A stretch of DNA of 32,000 nt from Schaalia meyeri (GCF_900105015.1 NZ_FNLK01000008.1:30001-62000), one strand, 5' to 3'; numbered from the stretch's first letter, positions 1 through 28,786 are shown. The notes: generated from the letters alone by a model not told the origin. A program made the numbers and translations.

Positions 1-425
1 GCGGCGCGGCATCCGGGGCACTGCGAGCCTCGGGACGCGGGGGCCTCCTGGGGGGCATCGCCAACTGGTTCGACGGCCCGATCCCCCGCAAGGGCGCGAA
101 GATGCTCGACCGGTGGGGCCTGATCATCATTCCCCTGTGTTTCCTGACGGTCGGCGTGCAAACGGCGGTCAATGCGGGCGCCGGGCTGGTGCGCATGCGC
201 TGGAGCACCTACACGGTCGCCATGGTGCCGGGGTGCGTCATCTGGGCACTCCTGTACGGCCTCGGCATGCTGGCGGTATTTGCGGCCGCGGTCCGCGCGG
301 TGGCCGGTTCTCCGTGGGGCTGGGCGGGGCTGGCGCTGATCGCCGGGATGATCGCCGCCAAGATCGCCTACAGTCGTCGCAGGCGCCACTCATCCGAACC
401 GGCGCTGCAAACAGAAAACGCCTAG
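1..425 (+). CDS. DedA/VTT-family-like integral membrane protein, 3' part (5' end lies outside the window)
   Basis: Frame 3 is open from position 3 to TAG 423-425, so the listed ORF 102..425 is only the Met-initiated tail. It has hydrophobic helices and a basic C-terminal tail (YSRRRRH). The ...RWG-IIIP...NAGAG...IW... layout resembles the C-terminal half of DedA. The family call is from memory only. Confidence 0.5.
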   Translation, partial: GAASGALRASGRGGLLGGIANWFDGPIPRKGAKMLDRWGLIIIPLCFLTVGVQTAVNAGAGLVRMRWSTYTVAMVPGCVIWALLYGLGMLAVFAAAVRAVAGSPWGWAGLALIAGMIAAKIAYSRRRRHSSEPALQTENA

Positions 426-1246: not shown

Positions 1247-1983
1247 GGGTGGCTCCTGTCGATGAGGGTCAGTGAGCGGAGGCGACGTTCGAGGTGCCAT
1301 TGAGTGTACGACGAGATGAGGCCCGTGGCCTCATCTCGCGCGTAGGATTCGCACCGGTCCGCGAATTCCCAGTCTCCGCTGAGAAGGTGGCCGAGCAGGG
1401 CGAGCGTATCGGGCGCCGGGGAGGAAGCGCCGGGGGGACGGCACGCGTCGCAGACGGTACCGCCTTCCGGGATCGAGAAAGACGCGTGCGGCCCCGCCTT
1501 CCCGCAGACGGCGCAGTCGAAGCACGAGGGCGCCCACCCCGCCAGGGCGAGCGCACGCAGGGTGTAGGAGGTTCGGATCAGGGTCGGATCGTGCCTGCGG
1601 CGCGCCATGGCGTTGAGGGCACCCAGGAGCAGGAGGTACTGCGAGTGGGTGCCGTCGGTGGCGTCAGCCGTGAGACGTTCGGCGGTTTCAACGATGACGG
1701 TGGCTGCCAGATAGAGGTCGTAGTTCGCCGCGATCGCGTCGCCGTATTGGGCGATGGAGACAACCTGCGTCAGGGTGTCGAGGGTGCGCCCGCGATGAAG
1801 TTGCGCGTCGATGACGCAGAAGGGTTCGACGCGCGCACCGAACTTGGAGGTCGTTCTCCGTACGCCCTTGGCCACGACTCGGATCTGACCGTGTTCAGCG
1901 GTGAGCAGCGTGATGATGCGATCCGCTTCACCCAGCTTGTGGGTGCGCAGGACGATCGCCTCGTCTCGGTAGGACTTCATCAC
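1243..1983 (-). CDS. recO: DNA repair protein RecO
   Basis: The N-terminus MKSYRDEAIVLRTHKLGEADRIITLLT (OB-fold) is typical of RecO, as is the Cys-rich zinc motif CFDCAVCG...CDAC. The gene is translationally coupled to uppS, as in other actinobacteria. Confidence 0.9.
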   Translation of the reverse strand: MMKSYRDEAIVLRTHKLGEADRIITLLTAEHGQIRVVAKGVRRTTSKFGARVEPFCVIDAQLHRGRTLDTLTQVVSIAQYGDAIAANYDLYLAATVIVETAERLTADATDGTHSQYLLLLGALNAMARRRHDPTLIRTSYTLRALALAGWAPSCFDCAVCGKAGPHASFSIPEGGTVCDACRPPGASSPAPDTLALLGHLLSGDWEFADRCESYARDEATGLISSYTQWHLERRLRSLTLIDRSHP

Positions 1984-2149
1984 GGCATCATTGTGTCACG
2001 GGGACCGGGCCGGGGCGTTGGCCGACGCCTCGCATCGCGCCGCGCGAAACCGTCTGTGAAGTGCGCTGTCACGCCCACCGACAAATATCGTCGCGCGCGA
2101 CGTCAACATAGTATGAGAAACTGACAGCGTGGTCGATTGCACACGCGAC

Positions 2150-2175
2150 AGATAGTTTTCAAATAGATAGTTTTC
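2150..2175. promoter_or_regulatory. Tandem direct repeat AGATAGTTTTC x2 (2150-2160 and 2165-2175) in the AT-rich region upstream of the first TetR gene; candidate operator or promoter element
   Basis: Two identical 11-mers lie 15 bp apart (start to start), 48-73 bp upstream of ATG 2223. The surrounding sequence is unusually AT-rich for this genome. Confidence 0.3.
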
Positions 2176-2222
2176 TCGTAACTGATTATAGTTTATCCGC
2201 AACCATTGAAGGAAGGATACAG

Positions 2223-2762
2223 ATGGCACCCCCGATCGATGCCCGAGAAAAGCTTGGCACTGCACTGCGTCAGGCCCTCACCCAGACGTCCCTGTCAAAG
2301 ATCTCTGTCAGCGCACTGACACGCTCCGCAGGGGTCACCCGTCAAGCGTTCTACTACCACTTCAACTCCCTCAGCGACCTCAACGCATGGATTTTCCGCG
2401 AGGAAATCACATCACGACTGACCGACAGTTCGGAGGAATGGCTGGACGCCATTGAGGCGACGATGATGTGGATGCATGACCATCGCGACGAGACCTCATC
2501 CGCCATGAAGACCATCGAAGCAAACGACCTGTGGGCCTTCCTGGCCTCGAACATCCAGGAGCTCATCGAATCCCGCCTGCCCGCCTCGGCCTCGGCCACG
2601 GCGCGCGACGCCGTCGCCCAGCACTTCGCCCTGGCCACCACCGCCCACATGGCGCAGTGGATGCTCTCCGGCCTCGAAGTCAACCCCTCGCGTGCGATCG
2701 CACGCATGAGGATCCTCATGACCGCCCAGACCACCCCCGCCCTGGCCCGTCTGGCCAAGTAA
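2223..2762 (+). CDS. TetR/AcrR-family transcriptional regulator (paralog 1)
   Basis: N-terminal HTH LSKISVSALTRSAGVTRQAFYYHFNS. An RBS-like GAAGGAAGGA lies at 2208-2217. Length is 179 aa. Confidence 0.85.
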   Translation: MAPPIDAREKLGTALRQALTQTSLSKISVSALTRSAGVTRQAFYYHFNSLSDLNAWIFREEITSRLTDSSEEWLDAIEATMMWMHDHRDETSSAMKTIEANDLWAFLASNIQELIESRLPASASATARDAVAQHFALATTAHMAQWMLSGLEVNPSRAIARMRILMTAQTTPALARLAK

Positions 2763-2804
2763 CGCACACTCCCACCAACCGCGTTCAGACAGACGCGCCA
2801 CCGC

Positions 2805-2836
2805 CCCCGGCCTCGCGAACGTTAACGAGGCCGGGG
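2805..2836 (+). terminator. Hairpin after the first TetR gene
   Basis: CCCCGGCCTCG (2805-2815) pairs perfectly with CGAGGCCGGGG (2826-2836) across a 10-nt loop. Only TT follows, so it is a T-tract-poor terminator-like structure. Confidence 0.45.
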
Positions 2837-3082
2837 TTACGCTATCTCCGCCCGCATTCAGGCATTCTCCCGAACCGGTTCGCAAGAAAATCAGCGGACA
2901 CCGCGCCCTCCGGGCGGCGCGCTACGTCGGGCGCGCGCGATCCTCACGACCGGCAGAACGCGACCGCGAGGCTCGCCACGTTATACAATTATTTGACCAT
3001 GCCTAGAGGTGGGATTTAACAGTTCCACACTCAGACATGTACAGTTCGCACGCCCCCCTTTTGCTGTCGACGAGGATCCCCC

Positions 3083-3667
3083 ATGGCCCATACCGATGCG
3101 AAAACAACGCTCGCCCACGCCCTGCGCGAGGCGCTCACGACCGTGCCCCTGTCAAAGGTGACGGTCTCCGGGCTCACGCGCGCCGCCGGCGTCACCCGCC
3201 AGGCCTTCTACTACCACTTCTCCGGCATCCGCGACCTGACCGTGTGGGTCTTCAAGCGCGAGGTTGCCAACCAGATCGCCGCCCAATCAACCCACGAAAA
3301 CTGGCCAGACGGCCTGCTGTCGATGTTCGTGTGGATGCAGACGCACCCGGAGGAAACCCGCTCCGCCGTCTCTACCCTCACCATGGAGGAACTCCAGATC
3401 TTCCTCCACAAGCAGCTGCGCACCGTCATGGAACCCATCGTTGACCACTTCAGCGATGGCCTGAACGTCACCGAAGACGACCGGCTCTTCGTGACCGATC
3501 ACTTCACGCTCTCCGTGCTGGGGCACGTGTCCCAATGGCTCGCGACCGGCATGAGCACCGACCCCCACATCCTGACCGAAAGAATCTCTCGGATCCTGCA
3601 CGGGCAGATCCGGCGCGCGCTCACCGTCTTTTCGGATAACCCAACCGACTCCTTGACGCGCACGTAA
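3083..3667 (+). CDS. TetR/AcrR-family transcriptional regulator (paralog 2)
   Basis: The HTH LSKVTVSGLTRAAGVTRQAFYYHFSG is nearly identical in pattern to the upstream paralog. Length is 194 aa. Confidence 0.85.
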   Translation: MAHTDAKTTLAHALREALTTVPLSKVTVSGLTRAAGVTRQAFYYHFSGIRDLTVWVFKREVANQIAAQSTHENWPDGLLSMFVWMQTHPEETRSAVSTLTMEELQIFLHKQLRTVMEPIVDHFSDGLNVTEDDRLFVTDHFTLSVLGHVSQWLATGMSTDPHILTERISRILHGQIRRALTVFSDNPTDSLTRT

Positions 3668-3694
3668 CGAGGCGCGCGTGAGCGAGGGGACAAA

Positions 3695-5548
<1,854 letters not shown>

Positions 5549-5636
5549 TTAAATATGCTCAAAATATGTGCATATGCCCACTCGTATGTCATGATAATTA
5601 GGTCCAATGTCCCACACACCGACGCGCGGAGCATCA

Positions 5637-7307
5637 ATGACCCCCCTATTCGTAGCCCAAACCTTTACCCCGTCGACGACGGCCGTGGCAGGAAATGTCT
5701 TCCTGACCGCTGTCGTGGGCCTCCTCCCCCTCGCTGTCTTCTTCGTCCTCATGGGCGTGTTCAAGGTCGCGACCCACTGGTGTTCGATCATCGCGCTCGT
5801 ACTCTCCCTCGTCATCGCGATCTTCGCCTTCCAGATGCCGATAGGCATGGCACTCCTGGCGGGCACGCAGGGGGCGGCAATGGGCTTCATGCCGATCATC
5901 TACATCATCATCGCGGCCGTGTGGCTGTACAACCTGACCGAGAAATCGGGCCGCAGCGCCGACCTGAAGGCCGTGTTTAACACGATCGGGCGTGGCGACC
6001 AGCGCGCTCAGGCCCTGATCGTCGCCTTCTGCTTCTGCGGCCTTCTCGAGGGACTGGCTGGCTTCGGCGCTCCCGTTGCCATCACCTGCGCGATGCTCGT
6101 CACCCTGGGGGTGCCGAAGATCAAGGCCGCCGTCGTCACCGTCGTCGGCAACGCGATCAACGTCGGCTTCGGTGCCATGGCGATCCCCACGACGACAGCC
6201 GGTCGCCTGGGTGGCGCCGACGCAACGGCCGTGGCCGCCAACATGGGTCACCTGACCTGGATCTTCTGCCTCTTCATCCCCCTCCTCCTGCTCTTCATCC
6301 TGGACGGCGGCCGCGGCGTTCGTCAGCTCTGGCCCCTCGCCCTCGTCGCCGGTGCCGCCGCCGGCGTGGGCCACTTCGTGACCCCCTCCGTTTCCTACGA
6401 GCTGACCGCCGTCGTCGCCTCCCTCCTGGGATTTGCGGCCTGCTACGTGTTCCTGCTCGTGTGGAGCCCCACGACCCCCCAGGACTGTGCGACCAGCGCG
6501 GACGAGTCGGATAAGCCCTCCGGATCCCGCATCGCGCTGGCTCTCATGCCCTACGTCCTGGTCGTCGTGATCATCGCGATCACCAAGCTGTGGAGGATCG
6601 GCGTAAGCCTGCCTGATCTGCTGAAATCAACAGACCGCGACATCCCCTGGCCCGGCATTTACGGCTCCCTGCTGGGCGCCGACGGGCAGCCCTCAACCGC
6701 TGCGATCTACACGTTGCAGATCCTGTCCAACCCCGGCACGTGGATCTTCGTCACCGGCATCATCGTGGCGATCGTGTACGGATCGAACTCCTCGGGCGGA
6801 CGCTTCGCTACCTCCATTCCCCAGATGTTCGCGGTCCTGCCGCGCACCATCTACTCGCTGCGCATGGCGATCCTGACGATCGCCTCCGTCATGGCCCTGG
6901 CCTTCGTTATGAACCTGTCCGGGCAGACCACCTCCATCGGTGCCGCGCTGGCCACGACGGGGGCGGCATTCGCCTTCCTTTCCCCGATCCTGGGATGGAT
7001 CGGCACGGCAGTCGCCGGTTCCGCGACCTCAGCGGGCGCGCTCTTCGCGAACCTCCAGTCCACCGCGGCCACCGGGGCGGGCCTGGATCCGCGCATCCTT
7101 TTGGCCGCCAACACCATCGGCGGCGGCATCGGCAAGATCGTTTCCCCCCAGAACCTGGCGATCGCGGCGACTTCCGTGGACTCCGAGGGCTCGGACGCGG
7201 AGATCCTCAAGAAGGCCGCTCCCTACTCAATCGGCCTGCTCCTGGTCCTGTGCATCCTCGTGTTCGTCTCCTCGCAGGGCTGGCTCGGCGCGTACATGCC
7301 GGCCTGA
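5637..7307 (+). CDS. lctP: L-lactate permease (LctP family)
   Basis: A polytopic membrane protein of about 556 aa. The N-terminal region NVFLTAVVGLLPLAVFFVLMG and the motif GFMPIIYIIIAAVWLYNLTEKSGR match the LldP/LctP layout. ATG 5637 has GGAG at 5628-5631, and 5607 is an alternative start. Confidence 0.9.
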   Translation: MTPLFVAQTFTPSTTAVAGNVFLTAVVGLLPLAVFFVLMGVFKVATHWCSIIALVLSLVIAIFAFQMPIGMALLAGTQGAAMGFMPIIYIIIAAVWLYNLTEKSGRSADLKAVFNTIGRGDQRAQALIVAFCFCGLLEGLAGFGAPVAITCAMLVTLGVPKIKAAVVTVVGNAINVGFGAMAIPTTTAGRLGGADATAVAANMGHLTWIFCLFIPLLLLFILDGGRGVRQLWPLALVAGAAAGVGHFVTPSVSYELTAVVASLLGFAACYVFLLVWSPTTPQDCATSADESDKPSGSRIALALMPYVLVVVIIAITKLWRIGVSLPDLLKSTDRDIPWPGIYGSLLGADGQPSTAAIYTLQILSNPGTWIFVTGIIVAIVYGSNSSGGRFATSIPQMFAVLPRTIYSLRMAILTIASVMALAFVMNLSGQTTSIGAALATTGAAFAFLSPILGWIGTAVAGSATSAGALFANLQSTAATGAGLDPRILLAANTIGGGIGKIVSPQNLAIAATSVDSEGSDAEILKKAAPYSIGLLLVLCILVFVSSQGWLGAYMPA

Positions 7308-7329
7308 TCCCCGCGCTCTCGGGGGGATT
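7306..7329 (+). terminator. Weak hairpin plus TTT overlapping the lctP stop codon
   Basis: CCCCG (7308-7312) pairs with CGGGG (7319-7323), followed by GGATTT. The stem is short and imperfect. Confidence 0.3.
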
Positions 7330-7388
7330 TGCTTCCGAGGGCACCCCCGAGTAGTCTCGCTGCATACATCCCAACGAAGGAGATTAGC

Positions 7389-7670
7389 GTGGCAAACTTG
7401 CGTTTCTCGAGCGAAGAAATCAGGGCGGCGATTGACTGTCTGGGTCGCGGTGCAAGCATCGGATTTGGTCTATCCGATCCCCCAGCACAGCCCTGCTGCA
7501 ACACGTACATCGGCAGGCTTCACCGCCCTCTTGAAGAGCTCAACAAAGAGGAAGACCATGTGAGAAGCAACATCAGTGATGCTCGCCAGAACCTACGGAC
7601 AACCATCGAGATTTTCGAGGCCACCGAAGCCCAGATTTCTCAATCCCTCAGCAGTCTGCAGAAAAGCTAA
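7389..7670 (+). CDS. Small (93 aa) predicted helical protein; candidate secretion partner or chaperone for the downstream WXG/LXG-type toxin
   Basis: GTG 7389 lies 6 nt after a strong SD, GAAGGAG (7376-7382). The C-terminal half (EELNKEEDHVRSNISDARQNLRTTIEIFEATEAQISQSLSSLQ) is heptad-like and helical. The gene ends 8 nt before the toxin ATG. Its size and position mimic the small helper proteins upstream of LXG toxins. No family was recognised. Confidence 0.55.
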   Translation: MANLRFSSEEIRAAIDCLGRGASIGFGLSDPPAQPCCNTYIGRLHRPLEELNKEEDHVRSNISDARQNLRTTIEIFEATEAQISQSLSSLQKS

Positions 7671-7678
7671 AGTACATC

Positions 7679-8704
7679 ATGATCACCAGATCCCAACTCG
7701 AAGGGTTGGACGTCCTCGCGTTCGACCCACTGCTCCAACAGATCCGGATGTCCATCCAATCCAACAAAGACAAAATCTCCGATATCGAAAAAGCAACGTC
7801 ACACATCGTATCCGGGTGGGAAGGTGAGAGCAGCAATGCCGCACAGAGCAGGCTCTCTCACATCCAGGAGCAGACCCAGAAGCACATCGATGATCTCGAG
7901 GCGATGAAAAAGACCGTCACGACCTACGTCGAGGCAAAGAAATTACGGCAAGCCCACATCCTGGCGTTCATTGCGGAGCTTAAGACACTCCAGATGACTG
8001 TCACCGATGACTGGCAGGTTCGTCCAAATATTGCGCTGATGGCTGCCGCATCTGTCGGCGGGGCATTCATCCTAGCTGCACAGGTAACGAAACGTCTGCA
8101 TGCCCTCGTCAGGATGTTTGAGCAATACGAATACGAGGCACCCATCGCAGGAGTCAGCACCGCTCCCTCGTTCGTGTCCTCGTCAGGCTACTCAACCAGC
8201 CAACCCGACAGAACGATCAATTTCGACGACGATTTTCCATACGGCTCCAAGAAGGGAAAAGAGACGTTGGAGGACCGCGCTAACTGGGCAAAATGGGGGC
8301 TCAAGCTCGAGGGGGCGGAAGCAATCGGAGGCATGCCCGACGCATGCAAAATGTATCGTCATTTCCGAGAAGGAAAAGGAACCCCCATGCGTTTCGACTA
8401 CGACAAGGCGTACCGGGAAGATGCTGGCATTCGCAACTTTGTCAATGACGAACTGAATGGGTCTCTGCAGGCAGCCAACGAGGCCGTGAAATCGGGGAAC
8501 ACAAACGTCACCCTTCACTCGCCGATGCGCACGAACAGCGGCTACTACCCCGAGACGGAAAACTGGCAGAAGACTGTCGGCGGCTACAGCAGCTACACCG
8601 AAACGAATGTCCAGGTCTCGGGAGACACAGTCACCGCCACGGTCACGGTTCACGCCAAAGACAAGTGGAACTTCAACTACGTCTCCATGTGCATTGGAGC
8701 GTGA
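7679..8704 (+). CDS. WXG100/LXG-superfamily polymorphic toxin candidate (341 aa): N-terminal WXG helical hairpin, central hydrophobic segment, C-terminal domain of unknown family
   Basis: W47-E48-G49 (nt 7817-7825) sits in SGWEGESSNAAQ at the position expected for a WXG100 hairpin turn, between two helical stretches of about 40 aa. IALMAAASVGGAFILAAQV (aa 118-136) is hydrophobic. An S/T/P linker follows, then a domain of about 165 aa (aa 178-341). The stop overlaps the start of the next gene (GTGA at 8701-8704). Confidence 0.65.
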   Translation: MITRSQLEGLDVLAFDPLLQQIRMSIQSNKDKISDIEKATSHIVSGWEGESSNAAQSRLSHIQEQTQKHIDDLEAMKKTVTTYVEAKKLRQAHILAFIAELKTLQMTVTDDWQVRPNIALMAAASVGGAFILAAQVTKRLHALVRMFEQYEYEAPIAGVSTAPSFVSSSGYSTSQPDRTINFDDDFPYGSKKGKETLEDRANWAKWGLKLEGAEAIGGMPDACKMYRHFREGKGTPMRFDYDKAYREDAGIRNFVNDELNGSLQAANEAVKSGNTNVTLHSPMRTNSGYYPETENWQKTVGGYSSYTETNVQVSGDTVTATVTVHAKDKWNFNYVSMCIGA

Positions 8705-9261
8705 CCTTGAAACTTTCCCTCCGCATTCTTGCCCCGTTGGTCGTCGTCGTGGCGCTCACCGCATGCAGCCCCTTTGCACCTAGGAACCCTCGGGTGCAGC
8801 TCCCCCACGACCCGCGCTTCACAAAATTCACGTCAAAGACCGAGGGCGACCCAAAGCTCGGCGACCAGCTGGATTCCTTCAATGAACGTATGCCCGCTCT
8901 CGGGGCAACCGAGGGCCATTTCGCAGCAGGTTTGATTCCCACCGGTTGGAGTCTCTTGCCCACCCCGGATCGGCAGCACTGGTACACCGGGGTTGCCACA
9001 GTCCCCGACGAGACGATCAAGAGACTCCAGGCCGGTGCGAGCGGTGACGCGAAGACACTGCCCGGAATTTACCCTGAGCTCTACCAGTACGTGCCTCAGG
9101 ACTGTCATTTCCCAACCATTCCATCGGACCATGCGAACAAGGTCCTTGAAACCAACAAGACAAGCATGAACAGCAAGTATGGTTCCCTCACAATCAAGGA
9201 GTTCGCCGCCTCGATGGACTGTCACCTGGTCCTGGTAGTCGGCGAGATCAGGCGCGGCTAG
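8701..9261 (+). CDS. Lipoprotein, candidate immunity protein (paralog 1)
   Basis: Signal peptide with lipobox L-T-A-C (VTLKLSLRILAPLVVVVALTAC). GTG 8701 overlaps the toxin stop. TTG 8707 (MKLSLRIL...) is an alternative start with GGAG (8696-8699) 7 nt upstream. The mature region is 54% identical to paralog 2 (89/165 positions, gapless hand alignment). Confidence 0.65.
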   Translation: MTLKLSLRILAPLVVVVALTACSPFAPRNPRVQLPHDPRFTKFTSKTEGDPKLGDQLDSFNERMPALGATEGHFAAGLIPTGWSLLPTPDRQHWYTGVATVPDETIKRLQAGASGDAKTLPGIYPELYQYVPQDCHFPTIPSDHANKVLETNKTSMNSKYGSLTIKEFAASMDCHLVLVVGEIRRG

Positions 9262-9310
9262 GAGGGCTTGTTTCTGTCCATCAGCGATGGTTCTCTTACG
9301 TAAGGTAGGC

Positions 9311-9868
9311 ATGAAACTCTTATTTCGCACTCTCGTACCGTTGGTCATCGTCGCGGCGCTGAGCGCGGCTTGCTACCCTTTTGTGCCAAGAAAACCCAAG
9401 GTGCATCTCCCCCACGACCCGCGCTTCGCCGAGTTCACGTATGAGACCGATGACGAGCTGAAGGTACAGGAGCGCATCGATTCATTTAACGAGCGTATGC
9501 CCGAACTGGGAGCGACCGAAGGACACGTCGTCGTAGCCCATTTCCGGGATGGCGCATCCTGGCAGCCGACGCCCGACCGCCAATTCTGGCTGACCGGCGT
9601 CGCCACAGTCCCCGATACGACGATCGCTATGCTCGTCGACGACAACATCGGCGAATCCTCGTTGCTGCCCGGCATCCACCCCGACCTCTACCAGTACGTG
9701 CCCGAGGAATGCTCTTTCACGACCGTTGACCCCGACGTCGCCAACAAGGTCCTCGATACCGCTCGTAACGAGTTTTATTCGGAATGGGGCTCGTTCGAGA
9801 TCCGCGAGTTCGTGTTCTCTGCCGACTGTAACCTCATCCTTGTCACCGGCGATGGCCTCCAGGGCTAG
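9311..9868 (+). CDS. Lipoprotein, candidate immunity protein (paralog 2)
   Basis: Signal peptide MKLLFRTLVPLVIVAALSAAC, with a lipobox-like ...AAC. Shared motifs with paralog 1 are LPHDPRF, DSFNERMP-LGATEGH, TPDRQ-W-TGVATVPD, LPGI-P-LYQYVP and ANKVL. ATG 9311 is preferred over the track's 9287. Confidence 0.65.
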   Translation: MKLLFRTLVPLVIVAALSAACYPFVPRKPKVHLPHDPRFAEFTYETDDELKVQERIDSFNERMPELGATEGHVVVAHFRDGASWQPTPDRQFWLTGVATVPDTTIAMLVDDNIGESSLLPGIHPDLYQYVPEECSFTTVDPDVANKVLDTARNEFYSEWGSFEIREFVFSADCNLILVTGDGLQG

Positions 9869-10462
9869 CACACCGACCTTAACGACACATATTAAGCTCC
9901 CACTCAAGATTCTCGCTCCAACTCTCGCAGTTATCGCTCTGGTCTCCGCGTGCCTCCCGTCCTCCTCCGGGCGTTCGTCCAGCCACAACACCAAACCCGC
10001 TGCATCGAAGATAGATCCCCGATTCGCTGAGTTTCAACACACCTTCAAGAAAAACCGGAGATTCAAGAAATGGTTGACATTCTCAACGAGCATTGGTCAG
10101 ACCTGGAGGCGACGGAGACTCACCTCACCCTCGCGTACTCTCGCACTGGCTTCTGTGACGTCAACATCGAACCCGAATTTTGGATGACTGGCGTCCCGAC
10201 CATTTCCGATGAAGCAATCGAGATGCTCAGCGTCAAGACAGACAATACGAATACCCTCCAGCCCGGCATCTATCCGGGCCTCTACCAATACGTGCCCCAG
10301 GACTGCCACTTCTCCATGATCCCCGCCGACCACGCCAATGAGACCCTCGAGACGAAGACGACCAAGTCTTCCTCTCCCTTCGGCTCGTTCAAGGTCCAGG
10401 AGCTCGCCGTTTCCGCGGACTGCCACCTCGTCGTCGTGACGGGAGAGGGAGTGATGGGATAG
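9852..10462 (+). pseudogene. Lipoprotein, candidate immunity paralog 3, disrupted by a 1-nt frameshift near the A5 run at 10050-10054
   Basis: The N-terminal part (lipobox V-S-A-C, then IDPRFAEFQHTF) is in frame 0, within track ORF 9726..10187. The C-terminal part (EKPEIQEMVDILNEHWSDLEATETH...LQPGIYPGLYQYVPQDCHF...SADCHLVVVTGEGVMG) is in frame 2. Frame 2 has a stop at 10028-10030, so the switch must fall between 10031 and about 10055. The codon homologous to the paralog start codons is ATT (9891-9893). The only upstream ATG (9852) lacks an SD. Confidence 0.6.
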
Positions 10463-10487
10463 CAACTCACCCACAATCCCCGGCCCG

Positions 10488-10509
10488 GGCCTCGTCCATT
10501 GTCGAGGCC
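10488..10509 (+). terminator. Short hairpin after the third lipoprotein gene
   Basis: GGCCTCG (10488-10494) pairs with CGAGGCC (10503-10509) across an 8-nt loop. There is no T-tract. Confidence 0.3.
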
Positions 10510-10760
10510 GAGGTGCCAGTGCGCTCACTCGCGACCATCGCAAAAATGAAAAACGAAAACTCACCCTGAGCTAAGTCGCCTTCCATGCGCCTCATTTCTT
10601 TCGGATACAAGGGATTTTTCGACGATGATTTTTCTTTAGTTTTCCGCGAGAATTCGCCGCTCACGCGCCATCCTCCACACAGCGGACACGAGAATACACC
10701 CCGGGACCTCCGACCTAGTCATAACCTGAGACTGACAGCACCTACGAGGAAGGATCCCCC

Positions 10761-11558
10761 GTGCGCATCGCTCTCTTTTCCACCTGCCTAGCAGACGTCA
10801 TGTTCCCCCAGGCGGCCCAGGCGACAGTGACCCTGCTCGAACGCCTCGGCCATGAGGTCGTCTTCCCCGAAGGCCAGGTCTGCTGCGGCCAGATGCACGC
10901 CAACACCGGCTATTTTGAAGACGCAGCGAAGATCACCCGTAACCACGTCAAGGCCTTCGAGCCCGTCCTGGACGGACTATGGGACGCCATCGTCGTTCCC
11001 TCCGGCTCCTGCACCGGCGCAGCACGCCACGAACAGAAGGTCGTCGCCGAACACGTTGGAGACACAGAGCTGGCCAAGCAGTCCCAGCGCATCGCCCAGC
11101 ACACCTACGACCTCACCGAACTCCTCACCGACGTCCTGGGCCTGGAAGACGTGGGCGCATACTTCCCCCACACCGTCACCTACCACCCGACCTGCCACTC
11201 CCTGCGCATCGCCAGGGTCGGCGACCGCCCCTACCGCCTGCTGCGCCAGGTCGAAGGACTGACCCTCATCGACCTGCCGGACGCCGAGGTCTGCTGCGGA
11301 TTCGGCGGCACCTTCTCCATGAAGAACTCCGAAACTTCCACGTCGATGCTGGCCGACAAAGTCGCCAACGTCATGTCCACGCGCGCAGAGGTCCTGGTCA
11401 TGGGCGACTACTCCTGCCTCCTGCACGTCGGCGGCGGCCTCTCCCGCCTCAACTCCGGTATCCGCCCCATACACCTCGCCGAAATCCTGGCATCCACCAA
11501 GGACCAGCCCTTCCAGGGCAACATCTCCTTCGCACCCGAAAGCGCACAGGTGATCTGA
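10761..11558 (+). CDS. lutA: Lactate utilization protein A (Fe-S oxidoreductase, CCG-domain)
   Basis: N-terminus RIALFSTCLADVMFPQAAQATVTLLERLGHEVVFPEGQVCCGQMH, and a second CCG motif (EVCCGFGGTF). The start is GTG 10761, with GAGGAAGGA at 10746-10754. Confidence 0.9.
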   Translation: MRIALFSTCLADVMFPQAAQATVTLLERLGHEVVFPEGQVCCGQMHANTGYFEDAAKITRNHVKAFEPVLDGLWDAIVVPSGSCTGAARHEQKVVAEHVGDTELAKQSQRIAQHTYDLTELLTDVLGLEDVGAYFPHTVTYHPTCHSLRIARVGDRPYRLLRQVEGLTLIDLPDAEVCCGFGGTFSMKNSETSTSMLADKVANVMSTRAEVLVMGDYSCLLHVGGGLSRLNSGIRPIHLAEILASTKDQPFQGNISFAPESAQVI

Positions 11559-11559
11559 C

Positions 11560-13164
11560 ATGACCGCAACGTTCATCGGAATGCCCTCCACCCCCGAATC
11601 CCACACCGGCGGCTGGCGCACCACCGTCACCATCCCCGAAGACACCCTCCGCTGGGGCCACACCTTCCCCGAGGGCGCACACAAGACACTGGCCAACACC
11701 CAGATGCGCCGTAACCTCGGCCACGCCACCCGCACCATCCGCACCAAGCGCGGGCAGCGCGTCGCCGAAATGCCGGACTGGGAGGACCTGCGCAGCGCCG
11801 CCGAGGCCGTCAAATTCGAAGTCGAATCGCGCATGCCCGAGCTGCTCGAAGAGTTCGAGCGCAACGTCACCGCTCGCGGCGGCATCGTCCACTGGGCGCG
11901 CGACAAGCACGAGGCCAACCGCATCGTCGCGGACATCATCAAGTCCAAGGGCGTCGACGAGGTCGTCAAGATCAAGTCCATGGCCACCCAGGAAACCAAC
12001 CTCAACGAGTACCTGAAGGGTCAGGGGATCTCCGCGCTGGAAACCGACCTGGCCGAGATGATCGTCCAGCTGGCCGACGACATGCCCAGCCACATCGTGG
12101 TCCCCGCGATCCACCGCAACCGCTCCGAAGTGCGCGGCATCTTCCTGGATCGCATGGAGGACGCGCCGCGCGATCTCTCGGATGACCCGACCGAGCTCAC
12201 GGGCGCCGCCCGCGCCCACCTGCGCAAAAAGTTCCTGCACGCCAAGGTCGCCGTCTCCGGCACCAACATGGGCATCGCGGAAACCGGCACCGTCTCCGTC
12301 TACGAATCCGAGGGCAACGGTCGCATGTGCCTGACCCTGCCGGACACGCTCATCACCCTGATGGGCATCGAGAAGCTGGTGCCCCGCTTCCAGGACATCG
12401 AGATCTTTTCCCAGCTGCTGCCCCGTTCCGCGACCGGCGAGCGCATGAACCCCTACACTTCCCTGTGGACGGGCGTCACCCCCGGCGATGGCCCCCAGGA
12501 GTTCCACCTGATCCTCATGGACAACGGGCGCACCAAGGTACTCGCGGACCCCATCGGACGACAGGCCCTCGCCTGTATTCGCTGCGGCTCCTGCATGAAC
12601 ATCTGCCCCGTCTACCAGCACACATCCGGTCACGCCTACGGCTCTGTCTACCCCGGGCCCATCGGTGCGATCCTCACCCCGCAGCTCACCCAGGGCCTGG
12701 GCGAGAAGGATCCTGTGCACACCCTCCCCTTCGCCTCCTCTCTGTGCGGTGCGTGCGGCGAGGTTTGCCCCGTCAAGATCGACATCCCCACGATCCTCAT
12801 CCATATGCGCGCGCGCACGGTGGACATCAAGCGCAACATCGTGCCCGATGTGTGGGACCTGGCGATGGGCGTTGCCACCCCCGTCATGTCGAACGCGACG
12901 CTGTGGAAGGCCGCAGGCATGTCCACCAAGACCACCCGCCTGTTCGCCAAGAAGGGGGCGATCGGCGCGCTGCCGTTCCCGGCTTCGCTGTGGACCCGCG
13001 CGCGCGACCTGCCGGTGGTGCCCAAGGAAACATTCCGGCAGTGGTGGAAGCGCACCCACGCGGACTCCGACGCAAACGCGCCCCGCACGGACACCCCCGC
13101 CACGGGGCTCCCGCTCGCATCCGAGCATGGCATGACCACCCGCACGACCCCCGAGGAGGCGTGA
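11560..13164 (+). CDS. lutB: Lactate utilization protein B (4Fe-4S ferredoxin-type plus LUD domain)
   Basis: Two ferredoxin cluster motifs, CIRCGSCMNICPVY and CGACGEVCPVKIDIP. The ATG lies 1 nt after the lutA stop. Confidence 0.9.
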   Translation: MTATFIGMPSTPESHTGGWRTTVTIPEDTLRWGHTFPEGAHKTLANTQMRRNLGHATRTIRTKRGQRVAEMPDWEDLRSAAEAVKFEVESRMPELLEEFERNVTARGGIVHWARDKHEANRIVADIIKSKGVDEVVKIKSMATQETNLNEYLKGQGISALETDLAEMIVQLADDMPSHIVVPAIHRNRSEVRGIFLDRMEDAPRDLSDDPTELTGAARAHLRKKFLHAKVAVSGTNMGIAETGTVSVYESEGNGRMCLTLPDTLITLMGIEKLVPRFQDIEIFSQLLPRSATGERMNPYTSLWTGVTPGDGPQEFHLILMDNGRTKVLADPIGRQALACIRCGSCMNICPVYQHTSGHAYGSVYPGPIGAILTPQLTQGLGEKDPVHTLPFASSLCGACGEVCPVKIDIPTILIHMRARTVDIKRNIVPDVWDLAMGVATPVMSNATLWKAAGMSTKTTRLFAKKGAIGALPFPASLWTRARDLPVVPKETFRQWWKRTHADSDANAPRTDTPATGLPLASEHGMTTRTTPEEA

Positions 13165-13165
13165 C

Positions 13166-13840
13166 ATGAGCAAGACCACGATGGACGCAAAGACCGCGAT
13201 CCTGGCGCGCGCACGCGACGCCATCTCCCATTCACAGCAGGGACGCCCCGTGCGACCGATCCCTCGCGACTACATCCGCTCCACCGAGCACGCGCCCGGT
13301 TCGGACGCCGTCGTTGAGGAAATGATCGAGAAACTCGAGGACTACTCCGCGCAGGTTGTCGTCGTTTCGGGAGAGGATGCCGTCGCCGACGCCGTCGCCA
13401 CGTTCCTGGCCGATCAGAAGGCCACCTCGGTCGTCGTTCCCACCGGCCTGGACGAGGCCTTCAAGAAGGCGGCCGCCCGCGACGGGCGCAAGGTGAGCGA
13501 AGACAGCCGCGAGAAGGCCATCTCCACCCTGGAGCTGGACGAGATCGACGCGGTCGTCACCCGCAGCCGCGTCGCCATCTCCATCTCGGGAACCATCGTC
13601 CTGGACGGCGAACCCGACCAGGGGCGTCGCGCAATCTCCCTCGTGCCCGACACGCACGTCGTCGTCCTAAACCGCGCGGACATCGTTCCCACGGTCCCCC
13701 AGGCGGTCGACATCCTCGGCAAGAACCCGACCCGTCCCATGACGTGGATCGCCGGCGGTTCGGCGACCTCCGACATTGAGCTCGTGCGAGTCAACGGCGT
13801 GCACGGCCCCCGCAACCTGCGGGTCGTCATCGCCTCCTGA
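13166..13840 (+). CDS. lutC: Lactate utilization protein C (LUD-domain)
   Basis: A 224-aa protein that starts 1 nt after the lutB stop. Its position and size fit LutC/YkgG, and the C-terminal ...GGSATSDIE...GVHGPR pattern is typical of the LUD domain. Confidence 0.85.
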   Translation: MSKTTMDAKTAILARARDAISHSQQGRPVRPIPRDYIRSTEHAPGSDAVVEEMIEKLEDYSAQVVVVSGEDAVADAVATFLADQKATSVVVPTGLDEAFKKAAARDGRKVSEDSREKAISTLELDEIDAVVTRSRVAISISGTIVLDGEPDQGRRAISLVPDTHVVVLNRADIVPTVPQAVDILGKNPTRPMTWIAGGSATSDIELVRVNGVHGPRNLRVVIAS

Positions 13841-13860
13841 GCGACGCGGCTGCAACGCGC

Positions 13861-13903
13861 AACGCTGTGCCCGACTGCCACTGCGGCAGTCGGGCACAGC
13901 GTT
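13861..13903. terminator. Bidirectional terminator hairpin between convergent lutC and the uvrA paralog
   Basis: AACGCTGTGCCCGACTGCC (13861-13879) pairs perfectly with GGCAGTCGGGCACAGCGTT (13885-13903), giving a 19-bp stem and a 5-nt loop. TTT follows on the plus strand. Confidence 0.7.
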
Positions 13904-13999
13904 TATGTGTCGGCAGCATTGGCGAGGACGCACGGCAGACAAGCAGCTACATTCCGACGATCGCGAGGAAGAATACAATCCCCTGAGCAAACGGCGGCA

Positions 14000-16489
14000 T
14001 CAGCGCAGGTATCGTCCCGTCACCGAATCAGCTTCGGCGGCGATATCGCGGGCAGTTCCGCAGGCGACGACGCGCCCGCCCAGGGCACCGCCGCCCGGCC
14101 CCATGTCGATCACCCAGTCGGAGTTGGCGATGACATCCAGGTCGTGCTCGATGACGACGACGGTGGCACCGCGGTCGATGAGACGCTGGAGGACGTCGAG
14201 GAGGACCTGCACGTCCTCCGGGTGCAGGCCGATCGTCGGTTCGTCGAACACGAAGAGCGCACCCTCCTGGCGCCTGCCCATCTCCGAGGCGAGCTTGAGC
14301 CGCTGGGCCTCGCCTCCCGACAGGGCGGGCGTGGCCTCGCCGAGCGTCAGGTAGCCCAGTCCCAAGCCCGAGAGGGTGTCGAGCAGCGCCCCAGCCTTCC
14401 TCAGGCCTCGCACCGCGCCCCGCGCGTCGTCCACGCTCATCGCCATGATGTCGGGCAGGCTGAGTCCATCGCGACGAATCTGCCCCGCATCCTGGCTGTA
14501 CCTGCTGCCCCGGCAGTGCGCGCACTCGACATCAACGTCAGGCAGGAACTGCACGTCCAAGGTGATCTGGCCGGTCCCCTCGCACGTGGGGCATCGCAGC
14601 GACCCCGTGTTGTAGGAGAAGGCCCCGGCCTTCAGCCCAGCCGCCCGCGCCGCCTCCGTGCGTGCGAAGGCCCGGCGCAGCTCGTCCAGGACCCCGCAGT
14701 ACGTGGCCACGGTGGAGCGCACGTTCACGCCGATCGGCGTCGCGTCGATCAAGTGGACGCGCGAGATGCCCGCCGCGTCCACGTCCCGCACGTGACCGGG
14801 CAGCGCCTCCCCCGCCAGGGCGGCCCGCAGGGCGGGCACCAGGGACTCCAGGACCATCGTCGTCTTACCCGATCCGCTGACCCCCGTCACCGCCGTGAGT
14901 GCCCCCACCGGGATATCAACGTTCAGGGGGTGGACGGTGTGGATCCGCTCAGTCTCCAGGTGGATGGCGCCGCGCCCGTCCGCGCCCGACGCACCGTGTC
15001 CCTGCGCCTTTAAGGCTCGCCGCCCCGACCCCGCCGGCCGCTCCACACGGCGACTCCCGGCCAGGTACGGGCCGATGCGAGAAGCGGGTGCTCGGCATGC
15101 CTCGTCGATCGGTCCCTGGAAGATGACGCGGCCGCCGTCAGCGCCCGCGCCCGGTCCGATCTCGATCAGATGGTCGGCGGCAGCCAGCACGCGGGTGTCG
15201 TGGTCAACCACGACGGCCGAGTTCCCGTCCGCGATGAGATCGCGGACGATGCCCAGGACCCCGTCGACGTTGGAGGGGTGCAGGCCGATGGTCGGCTCGT
15301 CCAGGACGTAGAGGACGCCGGTCGTACGGTTGCGGACCGCCCGAGCCAACTGCACACGCTGGCGCTCGCCGTTGGACAGCGTGGAGGAGGCCCGGTCCAG
15401 CGACAGGTAGGACAGGCCCAGGTCCGCCAGGCGCTTCATCGGCTCTGCCATCTCATCGACGATGACGCGGGCCATGGGCGCGACCTCGCCGGGGACGAGG
15501 CCGGGCACGCGCGCCACCCACTCGCGCAGCTCGGCCAGGGACAGGCGCGAGGCCTGGCCCAGGTCGATGCCGTCGATCAGGGTCGAGCGCACCCGCTCCC
15601 CCAGGCGCGTGCCCTCGCAGGCGGGGCAGGTGCGCGTGATGAGGTACTTGCCGACGCGGGCGAGGGCCTTCTCATCCTTGGCCTTGGCGAGCGCGTTCTC
15701 CACGGTCGCGACCGCGTTGAAATACGTGAAGTCCAGCTCCGCGCCACCCGTCTTCGTGGCAACGACAATGTGGTGTTTCTCGGCGGGTCCCTCGTAGACG
15801 ATGGCCTTCTCCGCCTCGCTCAGATCACGGAAGGGCACGTCGGTGCGCACGCCCATCTCTCTGGCGACGTCCTTCATGAGCTTCCACATGAGGGAACCCC
15901 ACGGGGACACTGCCCCCTCGTCGATCGATCGGGACTCGTCTGGCACGAGCGCGGCGCGGTCGACGACACGCTGGATCCCGGTCCCCTCGCACACGGGGCA
16001 CGCGCCGGCGGAATTGAAGGCCATCTCCTCGGCGCCCAGCCCGTAGAAGGACTCGGAGCACTGCGGGCACACGAGCGGCACTTCCAGAGCCACGTTGCGC
16101 GACGGGGGCACGCGGTGCCCGCTGGGGCACAGGTAGGAGCCCACGCGCGAGAACAGCAGGCGCAGGTGGTTCGCCAGCTCCGTAGCCGTACCGAATGTGG
16201 AGCGCACGCCGGGCGCGCCCGGGCGCTGGCGCAGAGCGAGGGCAGCGGGGACGTGGATGACCTCGTCGACCGAGGCCTTGGCCGCCTGGGAGATGCGCCT
16301 GCGCGTGTAGGTCGCCAGGGACTCCAGGTAGCGGCGAGAGCCTTCCGCGTAGAGCGTGCCCAGGGCCAGGGAGGACTTGCCCGACCCAGACACGCCCGCG
16401 ATGGCGACAAACCGGTTCAGGGGAACATCGACGTCTACGTTCTTCAGGTTGTGGACGCGGGCGCCGCGCACGCGTATGACGCTGGGCAC
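14000..16489 (-). CDS. UvrA-family ABC ATPase paralog lacking the UvrB-binding insert
   Basis: N-terminus IRVRGARVHNLKNVDVDVPLNRFVAIAGVSGSGKSSLALGTLYAEGSRRY, with two ABC modules (a second Walker A, TGVSGSGKTT) and zinc modules. At 829 aa it is shorter than canonical UvrA. Only about 35 aa separate the first CP... Cys module from FNSAGACPVCEGTG, where canonical UvrA carries the UvrB-binding domain. The GTG start (16489-16487) lies 1 nt after the era stop. Confidence 0.85.
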   Translation of the reverse strand: MPSVIRVRGARVHNLKNVDVDVPLNRFVAIAGVSGSGKSSLALGTLYAEGSRRYLESLATYTRRRISQAAKASVDEVIHVPAALALRQRPGAPGVRSTFGTATELANHLRLLFSRVGSYLCPSGHRVPPSRNVALEVPLVCPQCSESFYGLGAEEMAFNSAGACPVCEGTGIQRVVDRAALVPDESRSIDEGAVSPWGSLMWKLMKDVAREMGVRTDVPFRDLSEAEKAIVYEGPAEKHHIVVATKTGGAELDFTYFNAVATVENALAKAKDEKALARVGKYLITRTCPACEGTRLGERVRSTLIDGIDLGQASRLSLAELREWVARVPGLVPGEVAPMARVIVDEMAEPMKRLADLGLSYLSLDRASSTLSNGERQRVQLARAVRNRTTGVLYVLDEPTIGLHPSNVDGVLGIVRDLIADGNSAVVVDHDTRVLAAADHLIEIGPGAGADGGRVIFQGPIDEACRAPASRIGPYLAGSRRVERPAGSGRRALKAQGHGASGADGRGAIHLETERIHTVHPLNVDIPVGALTAVTGVSGSGKTTMVLESLVPALRAALAGEALPGHVRDVDAAGISRVHLIDATPIGVNVRSTVATYCGVLDELRRAFARTEAARAAGLKAGAFSYNTGSLRCPTCEGTGQITLDVQFLPDVDVECAHCRGSRYSQDAGQIRRDGLSLPDIMAMSVDDARGAVRGLRKAGALLDTLSGLGLGYLTLGEATPALSGGEAQRLKLASEMGRRQEGALFVFDEPTIGLHPEDVQVLLDVLQRLIDRGATVVVIEHDLDVIANSDWVIDMGPGGGALGGRVVACGTARDIAAEADSVTGRYLR

Positions 16490-16490
16490 G

Positions 16491-17747
16491 TCAGAACCCC
16501 AGGCGCCCCAGCATCTTCGGGTCGGACTGCCAGTCCTTCGCCGTACGCACGTGCAGGTCCAGGTAGACGCGCCGCCCCAGCAGCTCCTCGATGTGGGCGC
16601 GAGAGCGCGTGCCGATCTGCTTCAGGCGCGAACCCTTGCGGCCGATGATGATGGCCTTCTGGGAGTCGCGCTCCACGTAGACGTTGACGTGGATGTCCAG
16701 CATGGGCGCTCGCTCGTCGCCCTCGCGCCGGGGGCGCTCGATAATCTCCTCGACCTGGACGGCCAGGGAGTGGGGCAGCTCGTCGCGCACGCCCTCGAGG
16801 GCGGCCTCGCGGATGAACTCGGCGATCAGGGTGTCCCGTGATTCGTCCGTAACATCCCCTTCGGGATACAGCGGGGGCGAGAGCGGCACCGTCTGGGCGA
16901 GCACGTCGCGCAGGTGGTCGATGCCTTTGCCTTCCACGGAGGAAACGGGAACGATGGCCGCCCAATTCCCCAGCGCCTCAATCGAGAGCAGGTGCTTCAT
17001 GACGCGCTCACGCGGAACGGCGTCGCACTTGGTGGCCACAGCGACGATCGGACGTTTCACGGCGCGCAGTTCGCGGGCGATGAACTGGTCGCCGGGGCCG
17101 ATGCGCTGGTTCGCGGGCAGGCAAAAGAGGACGACGTCCACCTCGGAGAGGGCCTCGCGCACCATGTCGTTGAGCCGTTTGCCCAGCAGGGTGCGGGGGC
17201 GGTGGTATCCGGGCGTGTCCACGAGGACCAGCTGATACCCCTCGCCGTGGACGATGCCTCGGATGTTGTGGCGCGTGGTCTCGGGGCGCCCCGACGTGAT
17301 CGCGATCTTGCGCCCGACCAGGGCGTTCGTCAGGGTGGATTTGCCGACGTTGGGGCGCCCGACGACGGAGATAAAGCCCGCGCGAAAGTCCTCAGGAAAA
17401 TCGGGGATATCGATCGTGGCCACCGCGTCCCGCCGCAGCGATGCCACTGAAGTCATCGCCTCGAAGGCACCCAGGTCCGCGTCCTCCTCGCCCGCCAGGC
17501 CGTCCTCGGCGTCACAGTCGCCGATGTCATCACCGGCCTCGGTGTCACCGAAATCGGCGTCGGACCCATCCTCGGAGTCATCGCCGAGCTCATCCCCAGC
17601 CCCATCCCGGTTAACGTCACCGACGCCTCGGCCTATCTGCGCGCGCGCGTCGGCTTCCGGGTCGGCGGCGTCGGGGGCCACCTCGATGCGCGCGTCGTCC
17701 AGGGCGTTGGGGCCGGCCATGAGTTCGTGGTCGGAGGGGAATCGCAT
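16491..17747 (-). CDS. era: GTPase Era with an acidic N-terminal extension of about 115 aa
   Basis: G1 motif GRPNVGKSTL, then DTPG and a C-terminal KH domain. The G1 motif sits near aa 130 rather than near aa 10-15. The preceding region is rich in D, E, G and A. ATG 17747 lies 1 nt after the upstream gene's stop. Confidence 0.9.
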   Translation of the reverse strand: MRFPSDHELMAGPNALDDARIEVAPDAADPEADARAQIGRGVGDVNRDGAGDELGDDSEDGSDADFGDTEAGDDIGDCDAEDGLAGEEDADLGAFEAMTSVASLRRDAVATIDIPDFPEDFRAGFISVVGRPNVGKSTLTNALVGRKIAITSGRPETTRHNIRGIVHGEGYQLVLVDTPGYHRPRTLLGKRLNDMVREALSEVDVVLFCLPANQRIGPGDQFIARELRAVKRPIVAVATKCDAVPRERVMKHLLSIEALGNWAAIVPVSSVEGKGIDHLRDVLAQTVPLSPPLYPEGDVTDESRDTLIAEFIREAALEGVRDELPHSLAVQVEEIIERPRREGDERAPMLDIHVNVYVERDSQKAIIIGRKGSRLKQIGTRSRAHIEELLGRRVYLDLHVRTAKDWQSDPKMLGRLGF

Positions 17748-17748
17748 G

Positions 17749-20605: not shown

Positions 20606-20632
20606 ATCGGTCCTCAGTTTACTCTCACCTCC

Positions 20633-20676
20633 CCGGGGTCACTGCGGCGTGGGGATGCCCGCCGCAGTGACCCCGG
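20633..20676. promoter_or_regulatory. Perfect 17-bp inverted repeat in the phoH/hrpB divergent intergenic region
   Basis: CCGGGGTCACTGCGGCG (20633-20649) and CGCCGCAGTGACCCCGG (20660-20676) flank a 10-nt spacer. No gene ends here, so it is not a terminator. Confidence 0.5.
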
Positions 20677-20743
20677 CCGCATTGGCGCCGGGGCGCTCCG
20701 TCCCGGGATGCGGCCGCGCCCTGGGAGCACGCACAATGAAGCC

Positions 20744-28781: not shown

Positions 28782-28786
28782 CACCC

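Follow-up and report, generated by a model that had tools for sequence, protein, structure and literature searches.

A disarmed toxin-immunity cassette in Schaalia meyeri, probably Esx dependent, with a WXG100-like toxin head and a colicin M-like toxin domain

In the oral bacterium Schaalia meyeri, a low-GC island that encodes a putative secreted toxin and its immunity proteins was analysed within a stretch of 32,000 nucleotides (GCF_900105015.1, NZ_FNLK01000008.1:30001-62000; hereafter the window), to which all unprefixed coordinates refer. Five co-directional open reading frames (ORFs) lie at 7389-10462, where an initial annotation had proposed a type VII secretion-style cassette composed of a helper, a WXG-headed toxin and three lipoprotein immunity candidates. 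All five ORFs are present and the order of helper, WXG-headed toxin and lipoprotein array is real (Table 1), while NCBI annotates every one of the five products as an S. meyeri hypothetical protein. The segment has a GC content of 54-58% (window 7300-10600) versus 65-70% in its flanks, and the resulting island is flanked by a lactate permease gene (5607-7307) and by lutA/lutB/lutC (from 10761); bases 1-18704 of the window are an exact match to a stretch of the S. meyeri chromosome CP066065.1. In our view, this island is probably a toxin-immunity cassette that is directed at other bacteria and depends on Esx (type VII) secretion, and that is found in this strain in a disarmed state.

Table 1. 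Features of the toxin-immunity island, in window coordinates
Feature	Position	Strand	Description
Terminator-like stem-loop	7308..7325	+	3' of the lactate permease gene; consensus scan only; upstream edge of the island, GC falling onward
Helper, 93 aa, small, probably helical	7389..7670	+	GTG start; AAGGAG Shine-Dalgarno sequence 6 nt upstream
Toxin head, residues 1-157	7679..8149	+	WXG100-like helical hairpin, W47-E48-G49 in the turn, then a third helix
C-terminal toxin domain remnant, residues 165-333 of the 392-aa protein	8171..8677	+	Predicted colicin M-like fold; keeps D328-K-W-N-F-N333 and ends right after it
Deletion junction	8677..8678	.	523 bp gone relative to the intact allele (L001:1645-2167)
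Last 8 codons and stop of the 120-aa gene	8678..8704	+	Now the tail (YVSMCIGA) of the shortened toxin ORF
Lipoprotein 1, intact immunity candidate, 184 aa	8707..9261	+	TTG 8707 start (186 aa if GTG 8701); lipobox LTAC
Lipoprotein 2, intact paralogue, 185 aa	9311..9868	+	54% identical to copy 1; Shine-Dalgarno-like AAGGTAGG before ATG 9311
Lipoprotein 3, pseudogene	9890..10462	+	Start position reads ATT (9890); 1-nt frameshift (loss) near 10044-10053, two frames; three-frame translation

The helper has the strong Shine-Dalgarno sequence first ascribed to it, and the 341-aa ORF that begins 8 nt after the helper stop codon (7679-8704) does carry the reported W47-E48-G49 tripeptide, but it is not the intact toxin gene for which it had been taken. 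In this ORF, the first 333 toxin residues run on in frame into YVSMCIGA. At the protein level, a search recovered P0001, a product of 392 aa with no difference from the window ORF across the common region, together with homologues of about 400 aa in Actinomyces and Schaalia. Comparison of three contigs that encode P0001 (L001, L002 and L010) with the window by blastn gave 99.7% nucleotide identity apart from 523 bp, which the window lacks. What the deletion removed are toxin residues 334-392, the last 59 codons, and codons 1-112 of an adjacent 120-aa gene. The expected cassette grammar is there, and one conserved module gene is missing in the window. The lost part of the toxin includes residues that are invariant or nearly so family-wide (D338, D345, N348-G-R-F-E352 and G355) as well as the last beta-strand of the fold, suggesting that the 341-aa enzyme is dead. 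As the ORF is a deletion fusion, the GTGA overlap previously read as a lipoprotein start overlapping the toxin stop is instead the point where the 120-aa gene originally met the lipoprotein gene; TTG 8707 is the more likely start of lipoprotein 1, since it lines up with the copy 2 ATG, is preceded by GGAG at a distance of 7 nt and agrees with the 184-aa NCBI model. No obvious microhomology was seen at the deletion junction.

The shortened and intact alleles coexist in public samples. The intact allele was recovered in three sequencing runs and, among the cluster members listed (15/19), the 392-aa form is on about 16 contigs and the 341-aa form on about 18. A third S. meyeri toxin allele (P0339; 258 aa), which belongs to the same 90%-identity cluster and is found on two metagenome contigs, is frameshifted after approximately residue 234, inside the HFREGKG motif, indicating that the S. 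meyeri toxin has been inactivated in more than one way.

Downstream of the toxin ORF lie three diverged, tandem lipoprotein-like units, which form direct repeats spaced 607 and 594 nt apart with cores of 71-76% nucleotide identity and the lipoboxes LTAC, LSAAC and LVSAC. The three immunity candidates named at the outset are homologous units, of which only two are intact. Lipoproteins 1 and 2 each have a lipobox, the invariant lipidation cysteine and two more invariant cysteines. The third unit is a pseudogene, for which annotators call only a 130-aa tail (10070-10462) whose product is recorded on 66 contigs; its lesions are found also in L011-L013, of which L012 and L013 are independent contigs, and a variant (P0388) is out of frame too.

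That faulty assembly or sequencing produced the 523-bp gap and the frameshift, in a strain whose cassette is really intact, is highly improbable. The frameshift does adjoin a short A5/C2 run, as an error might, but the identical junction and frameshift are present in the complete genome CP066065.1, a second isolate record (SDR68366.1) holds the same 341-aa protein, and gapless alignments reveal this state again in at least five metagenome contigs assembled from different runs, with the intact toxin allele also recovered independently.

In other Schaalia genomes, an island at the same lldP-lutA site is composed of the helper, the toxin, the 120-aa gene and four lipoprotein genes, and continues with a second helper and then a 159-aa head-only toxin remnant fused to a lipoprotein gene fragment. 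On L004 (14346-15115), and likewise on L005 and L006, the second helper is a 97-aa paralogue with 34% identity to the window helper. The remnant on these three contigs, which together with the lipoprotein gene fragment that follows it lies 3' of the four-lipoprotein array, is 27% identical to toxin residues 1-157 (E 1.4e-20) and ends right after the head; it is an independent loss of the toxin domain. A 16-nt repeat shared between 8221 (coding for 'FDDDF') and 10617 (intergenic, before lutA) was considered as the relic of a second toxin; it had no tblastn support and was treated as a chance match.

The N-terminal part of the toxin resembles WXG100 proteins, as had been suggested. A profile built from 27 homologues matched the structures of Thermomonospora curvata and Staphylococcus aureus EsxA (E 1.4e-4), and G49 is invariant in these homologues, with W, M or L at position 47. 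An AlphaFold2 model of the 392-aa allele (predicted local distance difference test (pLDDT) 81) has helices at residues 12-46, 50-103 and 126-153, the first two forming the helical hairpin that had been predicted, and Foldseek aligned the head with EsxA (4lws_A; target-normalised TM-score 0.80, root-mean-square deviation 2.1) and EsxB (4j7k_B; target-normalised TM-score 0.75). The Pfam profiles gave a mixed picture: the family member P0065 scored 27.8 bits against WXG100 (PF06013), above the cut-off of 27.3 bits, which the window protein does not reach, and the window toxin had no match to LXG (PF04740). The protein has no signal peptide, and hydrophobic residues 115-140, considered as a possible transmembrane helix, were ruled out as such, since homologues are charged there and the model places them in a helix of the head bundle. 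P0065 is the most distant WXG100-headed member from the first search and is encoded on a JGI metagenome contig (L007:10001-11640), where its neighbours are a giant Ser/Thr kinase-GAF-PAS gene and, downstream, an ORF of 174 aa. As this contig looks non-actinobacterial, WXG-headed versions of the toxin appear not to be limited to Actinomycetota.

The helper is kept directly 5' of the toxin gene in related loci and contains a variant form of the YxxxD/E secretion motif, F76-E77-x-x-E80, that is nearly invariant. Small upstream partners with a Y-x-x-x-D/E motif are also encoded at Nocardia and Pseudonocardiaceae loci with the same toxin domain. On the basis of position and motif, the helper would act as the secretion partner of the toxin, and helper and toxin head together may mimic an EsxB-EsxA pair. 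The 120-aa gene lies directly 3' of the toxin gene in every Actinomycetaceae locus, including the distant L029 and L032, and its family is restricted to 35 clusters from Actinomyces and Schaalia; at more distant loci it is missing, and the toxin gene is followed immediately by the lipoprotein gene. The protein lacks a signal peptide and has no Pfam or NCBIfam match; a profile search of PDB sequences gave only coiled-coil noise. It is conserved, appears to be cytoplasmic and probably serves either as a chaperone before secretion or as an antidote inside the cell; that it was lost in one event with the end of the toxin suits a role confined to the time when the toxin is active.

Although no Pfam or NCBIfam model covers the C-terminal domain, its relatives are numerous. 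A profile search of 1.84 billion cluster representatives recovered 1146 representative proteins at E <= 1e-3, including 300 at <= 1e-30, and in all of them the domain is C-terminal, on proteins of 170-3025 aa, the longest being RHS proteins. Among 114 members, the carriers comprised WXG100 (13), LXG (8), WXG100_2 (7), T7SS_signal (2), EspC (2), eCIS_core (2) and DUF4280 (PAAR-like; 1) proteins, with best E values for the carrier heads of 2.4e-18 for LXG, 1.7e-28 for WXG100_2 and 5e-31 for T7SS_signal. The occurrence of one C-terminal domain on unrelated trafficking heads is the architecture of a polymorphic toxin module and bears out the assignment of the C-terminus as the toxin. In a scan of reference genomes the domain was found in Actinomyces, Schaalia, Pauljensenia, Nocardia, Saccharothrix, Streptomyces, Kitasatospora, Terrabacter and Cellulosimicrobium, and also in some Bacteroidota, Proteobacteria, Myxococcales and Anaerolineae.

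Several observations sit uneasily with Esx-dependent export. The 32-kb window contains no secretion-machinery or type VII gene, as was already noted when the cassette was described as a satellite, and none was present within 10 kb of homologues in the five contexts inspected. The Pfam WXG100 score of the window protein, 22.5 bits (E 1.4e-4), is sub-threshold. The helper had nothing significant in Pfam or NCBIfam, where only sub-significant LXG, EspC and PE matches appeared, and its profile found no solved relative among PDB sequences, only coiled-coil noise. Moreover, the substrates detected in the secretome of Schaalia odontolytica were all encoded inside the Esx cluster (PMC13622651), with those encoded outside it going undetected. 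Each of these points would be expected if the toxin were exported by another route, or acted inside its producer, with head and helper forming a helical structure unrelated to type VII secretion. We nevertheless regard that explanation as improbable. A toxin without a signal peptide has, as its partner, an extracytoplasmic lipoprotein; the glycine of the WXG tripeptide is invariant; relatives carry the same toxin domain on heads that are Pfam-significant for LXG, WXG100_2 and T7SS_signal; upstream partners with YxxxD/E motifs occur in Nocardia and Pseudonocardiaceae; and the same locus grammar is ESX-4 dependent in mycobacteria (PMC13444075). Esx-dependent secretion thus remains our preferred explanation for how the toxin would leave the cell.

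The lipoproteins can be followed across the same range of loci as the toxin domain. Where enough downstream sequence was available at distant loci, a lipoprotein of one family, 150-190 aa in length, was encoded directly 3' of the toxin gene in 43 of 63 cases, mostly overlapping it by 4 nt. This distant family aligned with the window lipoproteins by hhalign with a probability of 93% (E 3.5e-7 over 116 columns), and a hidden Markov model built from the distant lipoproteins matched the Actinomycetaceae copies at 2e-11 to 2e-4. Within Actinomycetaceae, two to four diverged lipoprotein copies (34-55% identity) follow each toxin gene. The lipoproteins have no Pfam or NCBIfam match. Their linkage to the toxin domain across phyla and carrier types is strong evidence, drawn from gene neighbourhoods, that they are its cognate immunity proteins, as first proposed. 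As the lipoprotein anchor faces outward, the toxin can be argued to act on the outer face of the membrane.

Comparison of the toxin model with PDB structures using Foldseek pointed to the colicin M group. Apart from head matches, the only structures found at E < 0.01 were the C-terminal domain (CTD) of BtpeA (9jdi_A; 1.3e-4), colicin M (2xtr_A, 4.5e-4; 3da4_A, 2e-3) and syringacin M (4fzm; 2.6e-3), with probabilities of 0.96-1.00 for these four, and the next non-WXG matches lay at E >= 0.7. Colicin M (ColM) cleaves lipid II and depends on an essential motif, D226-K-Y-D-F-N-A-S-T-H-R236 (PMC8469651). The window family has the motif D328-[KR]-[WY]-N331-F332-[ND], in which the aspartate is invariant across more than 114 diverse members, and equivalents of ColM D226, Y228, F230 and N231 are present. 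Low-stringency profile alignments to ColM are collinear, pairing the D-motifs with each other and H228-F-x-x-G-x-G with ColM H135-Y-L-W-G-N-G. Based on these models and alignments, the domain is colicin M-like in its predicted fold, and we stop short of assigning it to that family; a cell-envelope toxin that cleaves lipid II is our best guess for its function.

Against a lipid II target of this kind stand a number of results. The full colicin M signature DxYDx5HR, in which D226, Y228, D229, H235 and R236 are essential, is not present in the window family, which has an invariant asparagine in place of D229 and no conserved H-R at +9/+10. There is no Pfam match to Colicin_M (PF14859) or DUF3289, profile comparisons to the ColM sequence, narrow and broad, were not significant (hhalign E 0.03-0.07; hmmsearch E 0.003 for a single target), and the toxin family profiles found only WXG100 proteins among PDB sequences. 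TM-scores to the colicin M group were low (0.14-0.37), which we attribute to a two-domain model having been searched whole, and the top-ranking structure is the CTD of BtpeA. Counting against the cassette reading more broadly, the lipoprotein model (pLDDT 79) had no match in a Foldseek search of the PDB (best E value 0.12) and is unlike the known immunity proteins Cmi, TipC and BtpiA. The partly kept signature, the missing sequence-level link to PF14859, the low TM-scores and the identity of the best structural match would all suit a version of the cassette in which the colicin M likeness reflects the scaffold only and the target is another part of the envelope, such as a different lipid-linked precursor, peptidoglycan or the membrane. 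We judge this to be unlikely. Every one of the four significant fold matches falls within the colicin M group, with nothing else at E < 0.4, and the equivalent of the essential ColM D226 never varies; an extracytoplasmic lipoprotein partner, for its part, suits an outer-face target. Cleavage of lipid II is accordingly retained as the predicted activity in what follows.

Taken together, these analyses suggest the following model. In the intact form of the cassette, the helper would pair with the WXG100-like head of the 392-aa toxin, and the [W/M/L]xG of the toxin and the [F/Y]ExxE of the helper would form a two-part signal for an Esx machinery encoded elsewhere in the genome. Once outside, the C-terminal domain would most likely cut the undecaprenyl-pyrophosphate link of lipid II on the outer face of the membrane in neighbouring Gram-positive cells, while lipoproteins anchored at the outer face of the membrane would neutralise it, the diverged array of paralogues probably covering several toxin alleles. 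The protein encoded between the toxin and lipoprotein genes would serve, before secretion, as a chaperone or, within the cell, as an antidote. In the S. meyeri lineage represented by the window, a single 523-bp deletion took away both the end of the toxin domain and the 120-aa gene, at a time when the third immunity copy had already decayed. With no active toxin and two intact immunity genes kept, such a strain would be a resistant non-producer. Of this model, the gene content, the deletion, the pseudogene, the domain families and the conserved linkage of toxin and lipoprotein are observed; Esx dependence, lipid II as the target and the roles given to the helper and the 120-aa protein are predicted.

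The initial annotation had known of no characterised case of this architecture in a high-GC actinobacterium. This is now outdated, as the architecture matches the mycobacterial Eat loci (PMC13444075) and the candidate Esx substrates of Schaalia (PMC13622651). Benedict et al. (2026) showed that mycobacterial Eat toxins are ESX-4 dependent and are accompanied by Tap helpers and a lipoprotein inhibitor, and described diverse similar loci across Actinomycetota with lipoprotein immunity for extracellular targets (PMC13444075). Wang et al. (2026) showed that the sister species S. odontolytica has a working Esx system (eccC), noted candidate substrates outside the Esx cluster that each lie beside a small WXG100-like hairpin gene, and stated that Actinomycetaceae Esx effectors had not been identified before (PMC13622651). 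A colicin M-like domain is mentioned in neither study. Eat loci (EatA, TapA1/A2, EatI) and the S. meyeri island have in common one or more small partner genes upstream (helical in Eat, probably so here) and a lipoprotein inhibitor downstream (a candidate here), an elongated N-terminal helical domain joined to a C-terminal, envelope-directed enzyme (predicted here), and a position apart from the secretion genes. They differ in that Eat has two helpers rather than one and a GH183 arabinanase rather than a colicin M-like domain, and in that their immunity families are unrelated; here there is a paralogue array and, in the intact form, the extra cytoplasmic 120-aa gene. The host here is also a non-mycolate oral actinobacterium, and the window copy is truncated.

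Outside Actinomycetota, the cassette is comparable to TelC of Streptococcus intermedius, a type VIIb-secreted lipid II phosphatase with the partners LapC1, LapC2 and TipC (PMC5555719, PMC6193138): a WXG/LXG-superfamily head with one or more adjacent helper genes, action on lipid II outside the membrane (predicted here) and an outward-facing, membrane-anchored immunity protein are common to both. TelC belongs to a firmicute type VIIb system rather than an actinobacterial Esx system. We found no sequence similarity to the TelC toxin or the TipC immunity protein, and TelC was not among the Foldseek matches. To our knowledge, the fold of TelC is not the colicin M fold. The colicin M family itself (ColM, pectocins M, syringacin M and PaeM; PF14859; PMC8469651, PMC5821083), with which we group for comparison the ColM-like type VI effector domain DUF3289 (PMC11148199), shares with the window family the fold (predicted for the latter; Foldseek E 4.5e-4 to 2.6e-3), a D-K-[YW]-x-F-N core with the essential aspartate, the collinear H-[YF]-x-x-G-x-G motif and an outward-facing immunity protein at the cytoplasmic membrane. 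In contrast, the window toxin lacks a Pfam match, has N for ColM D229 and is without the H235-R236 pair; it is borne by type VII, RHS and other carriers, mainly in Actinomycetota, instead of relying on TonB-dependent import, and its immunity protein is a lipoprotein of another family. Burroughs et al. mention a new toxin domain resembling colicin M, borne by other carriers and paired with BamE-like immunity proteins, which may or may not be the window domain (PMC12419801). The best structural match, over 229 aligned columns, is the CTD of BtpeA from the Bacteroides fragilis type VI secretion system (PDB 9jdi), which is likewise paired with an immunity protein (BtpiA). The window toxin family is also found on RHS proteins of Bacteroides and other Bacteroidota, followed by lipoproteins (L089, L093). 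BtpeA differs in its type VI delivery, and the 9jdi sequence was undetected by the window-family profiles.

Orphan immunity arrays and disarmed toxin loci are familiar from the TipC- and EsaG-type arrays of firmicutes and from the acquired interbacterial defence islands of Bacteroidales. As in the window, diverged immunity paralogues are kept there beside a lost or truncated toxin gene, giving resistance without toxin production (predicted here). The S. meyeri case differs in being a population polymorphism that stems from one defined 523-bp deletion, with the adjacent 120-aa gene also lost.

The rest of the window is housekeeping in character and includes a uvrA-like gene, era, a CNNM/CorC transporter gene, hrpB and a pyridine-nucleotide oxidoreductase gene. 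On the minus strand, an 826-aa ORF (25372-27852), as read from its translation only, carries subtilase-type motifs (HGTHVAGT, SGTSMASPHVAG) and a C-terminal run of cell-wall-binding-type repeats (GW..WYYLD..GKMATGW); the plus-strand ORFs over the same DNA (25342-27054 and 27130-27729) have no family match and are probably spurious. In a 1259-aa ORF at 19583-23362 (plus strand), the HrpB helicase match spans residues 401-1259 only, and the first approximately 400 codons, in DNA of 70-75% GC, may reflect an over-extended call or extend the protein genuinely at its N-terminus. A second drop in GC, to 59-62%, spans 27500-31300, where a gene for a DUF5692 membrane protein (28787-30079, minus strand) is accompanied by an ORF of 393 aa (30111-31292) that has no family match and carries a hydrophobic segment in its N-terminal part.

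What is new here is the toxin-immunity family, in its identity and in its breadth, together with its predicted colicin M-like fold and a disarmed allele that coexists with an intact one. A wider reading, which we put forward tentatively and with somewhat less than even confidence, is that the toxin domain and lipoprotein constitute an unnamed and very widespread pair (at least 1146 clusters, from Actinomycetota to Bacteroidota and Proteobacteria); that within the colicin M fold the domain forms a divergent branch, marked by a catalytic signature specific to it, D-x-[YW]-N-F-N ... D ... D-x-x-N-G-R-F; that it would be the first colicin M-type, lipid II-cleaving weapon of a Gram-positive bacterium to be delivered by an actinobacterial Esx system; and that toxin loss in S. 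meyeri may be a balanced polymorphism. As part of this reading, the one-step co-deletion gives a hint that the 120-aa protein is required only as long as the toxin is active, whether as an antidote within the cell or as a chaperone dedicated to a toxin that folds before export.

Esx effectors of Actinomycetaceae are almost unstudied, the first secreted effector having been reported only in 2026, and this cassette offers a testable one, with a predicted lipid II target, a defined immunity family and a natural knock-out allele beside the intact allele. As the toxin domain is found on more than 1000 distinct protein clusters and on type VI, type VII, RHS and extracellular contractile injection system (eCIS) carriers, naming and testing it would improve many annotations. 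For the organism, the deletion suggests that oral commensals may shed toxin genes yet keep the protection that goes with them, which bears on competition between strains in dental plaque.

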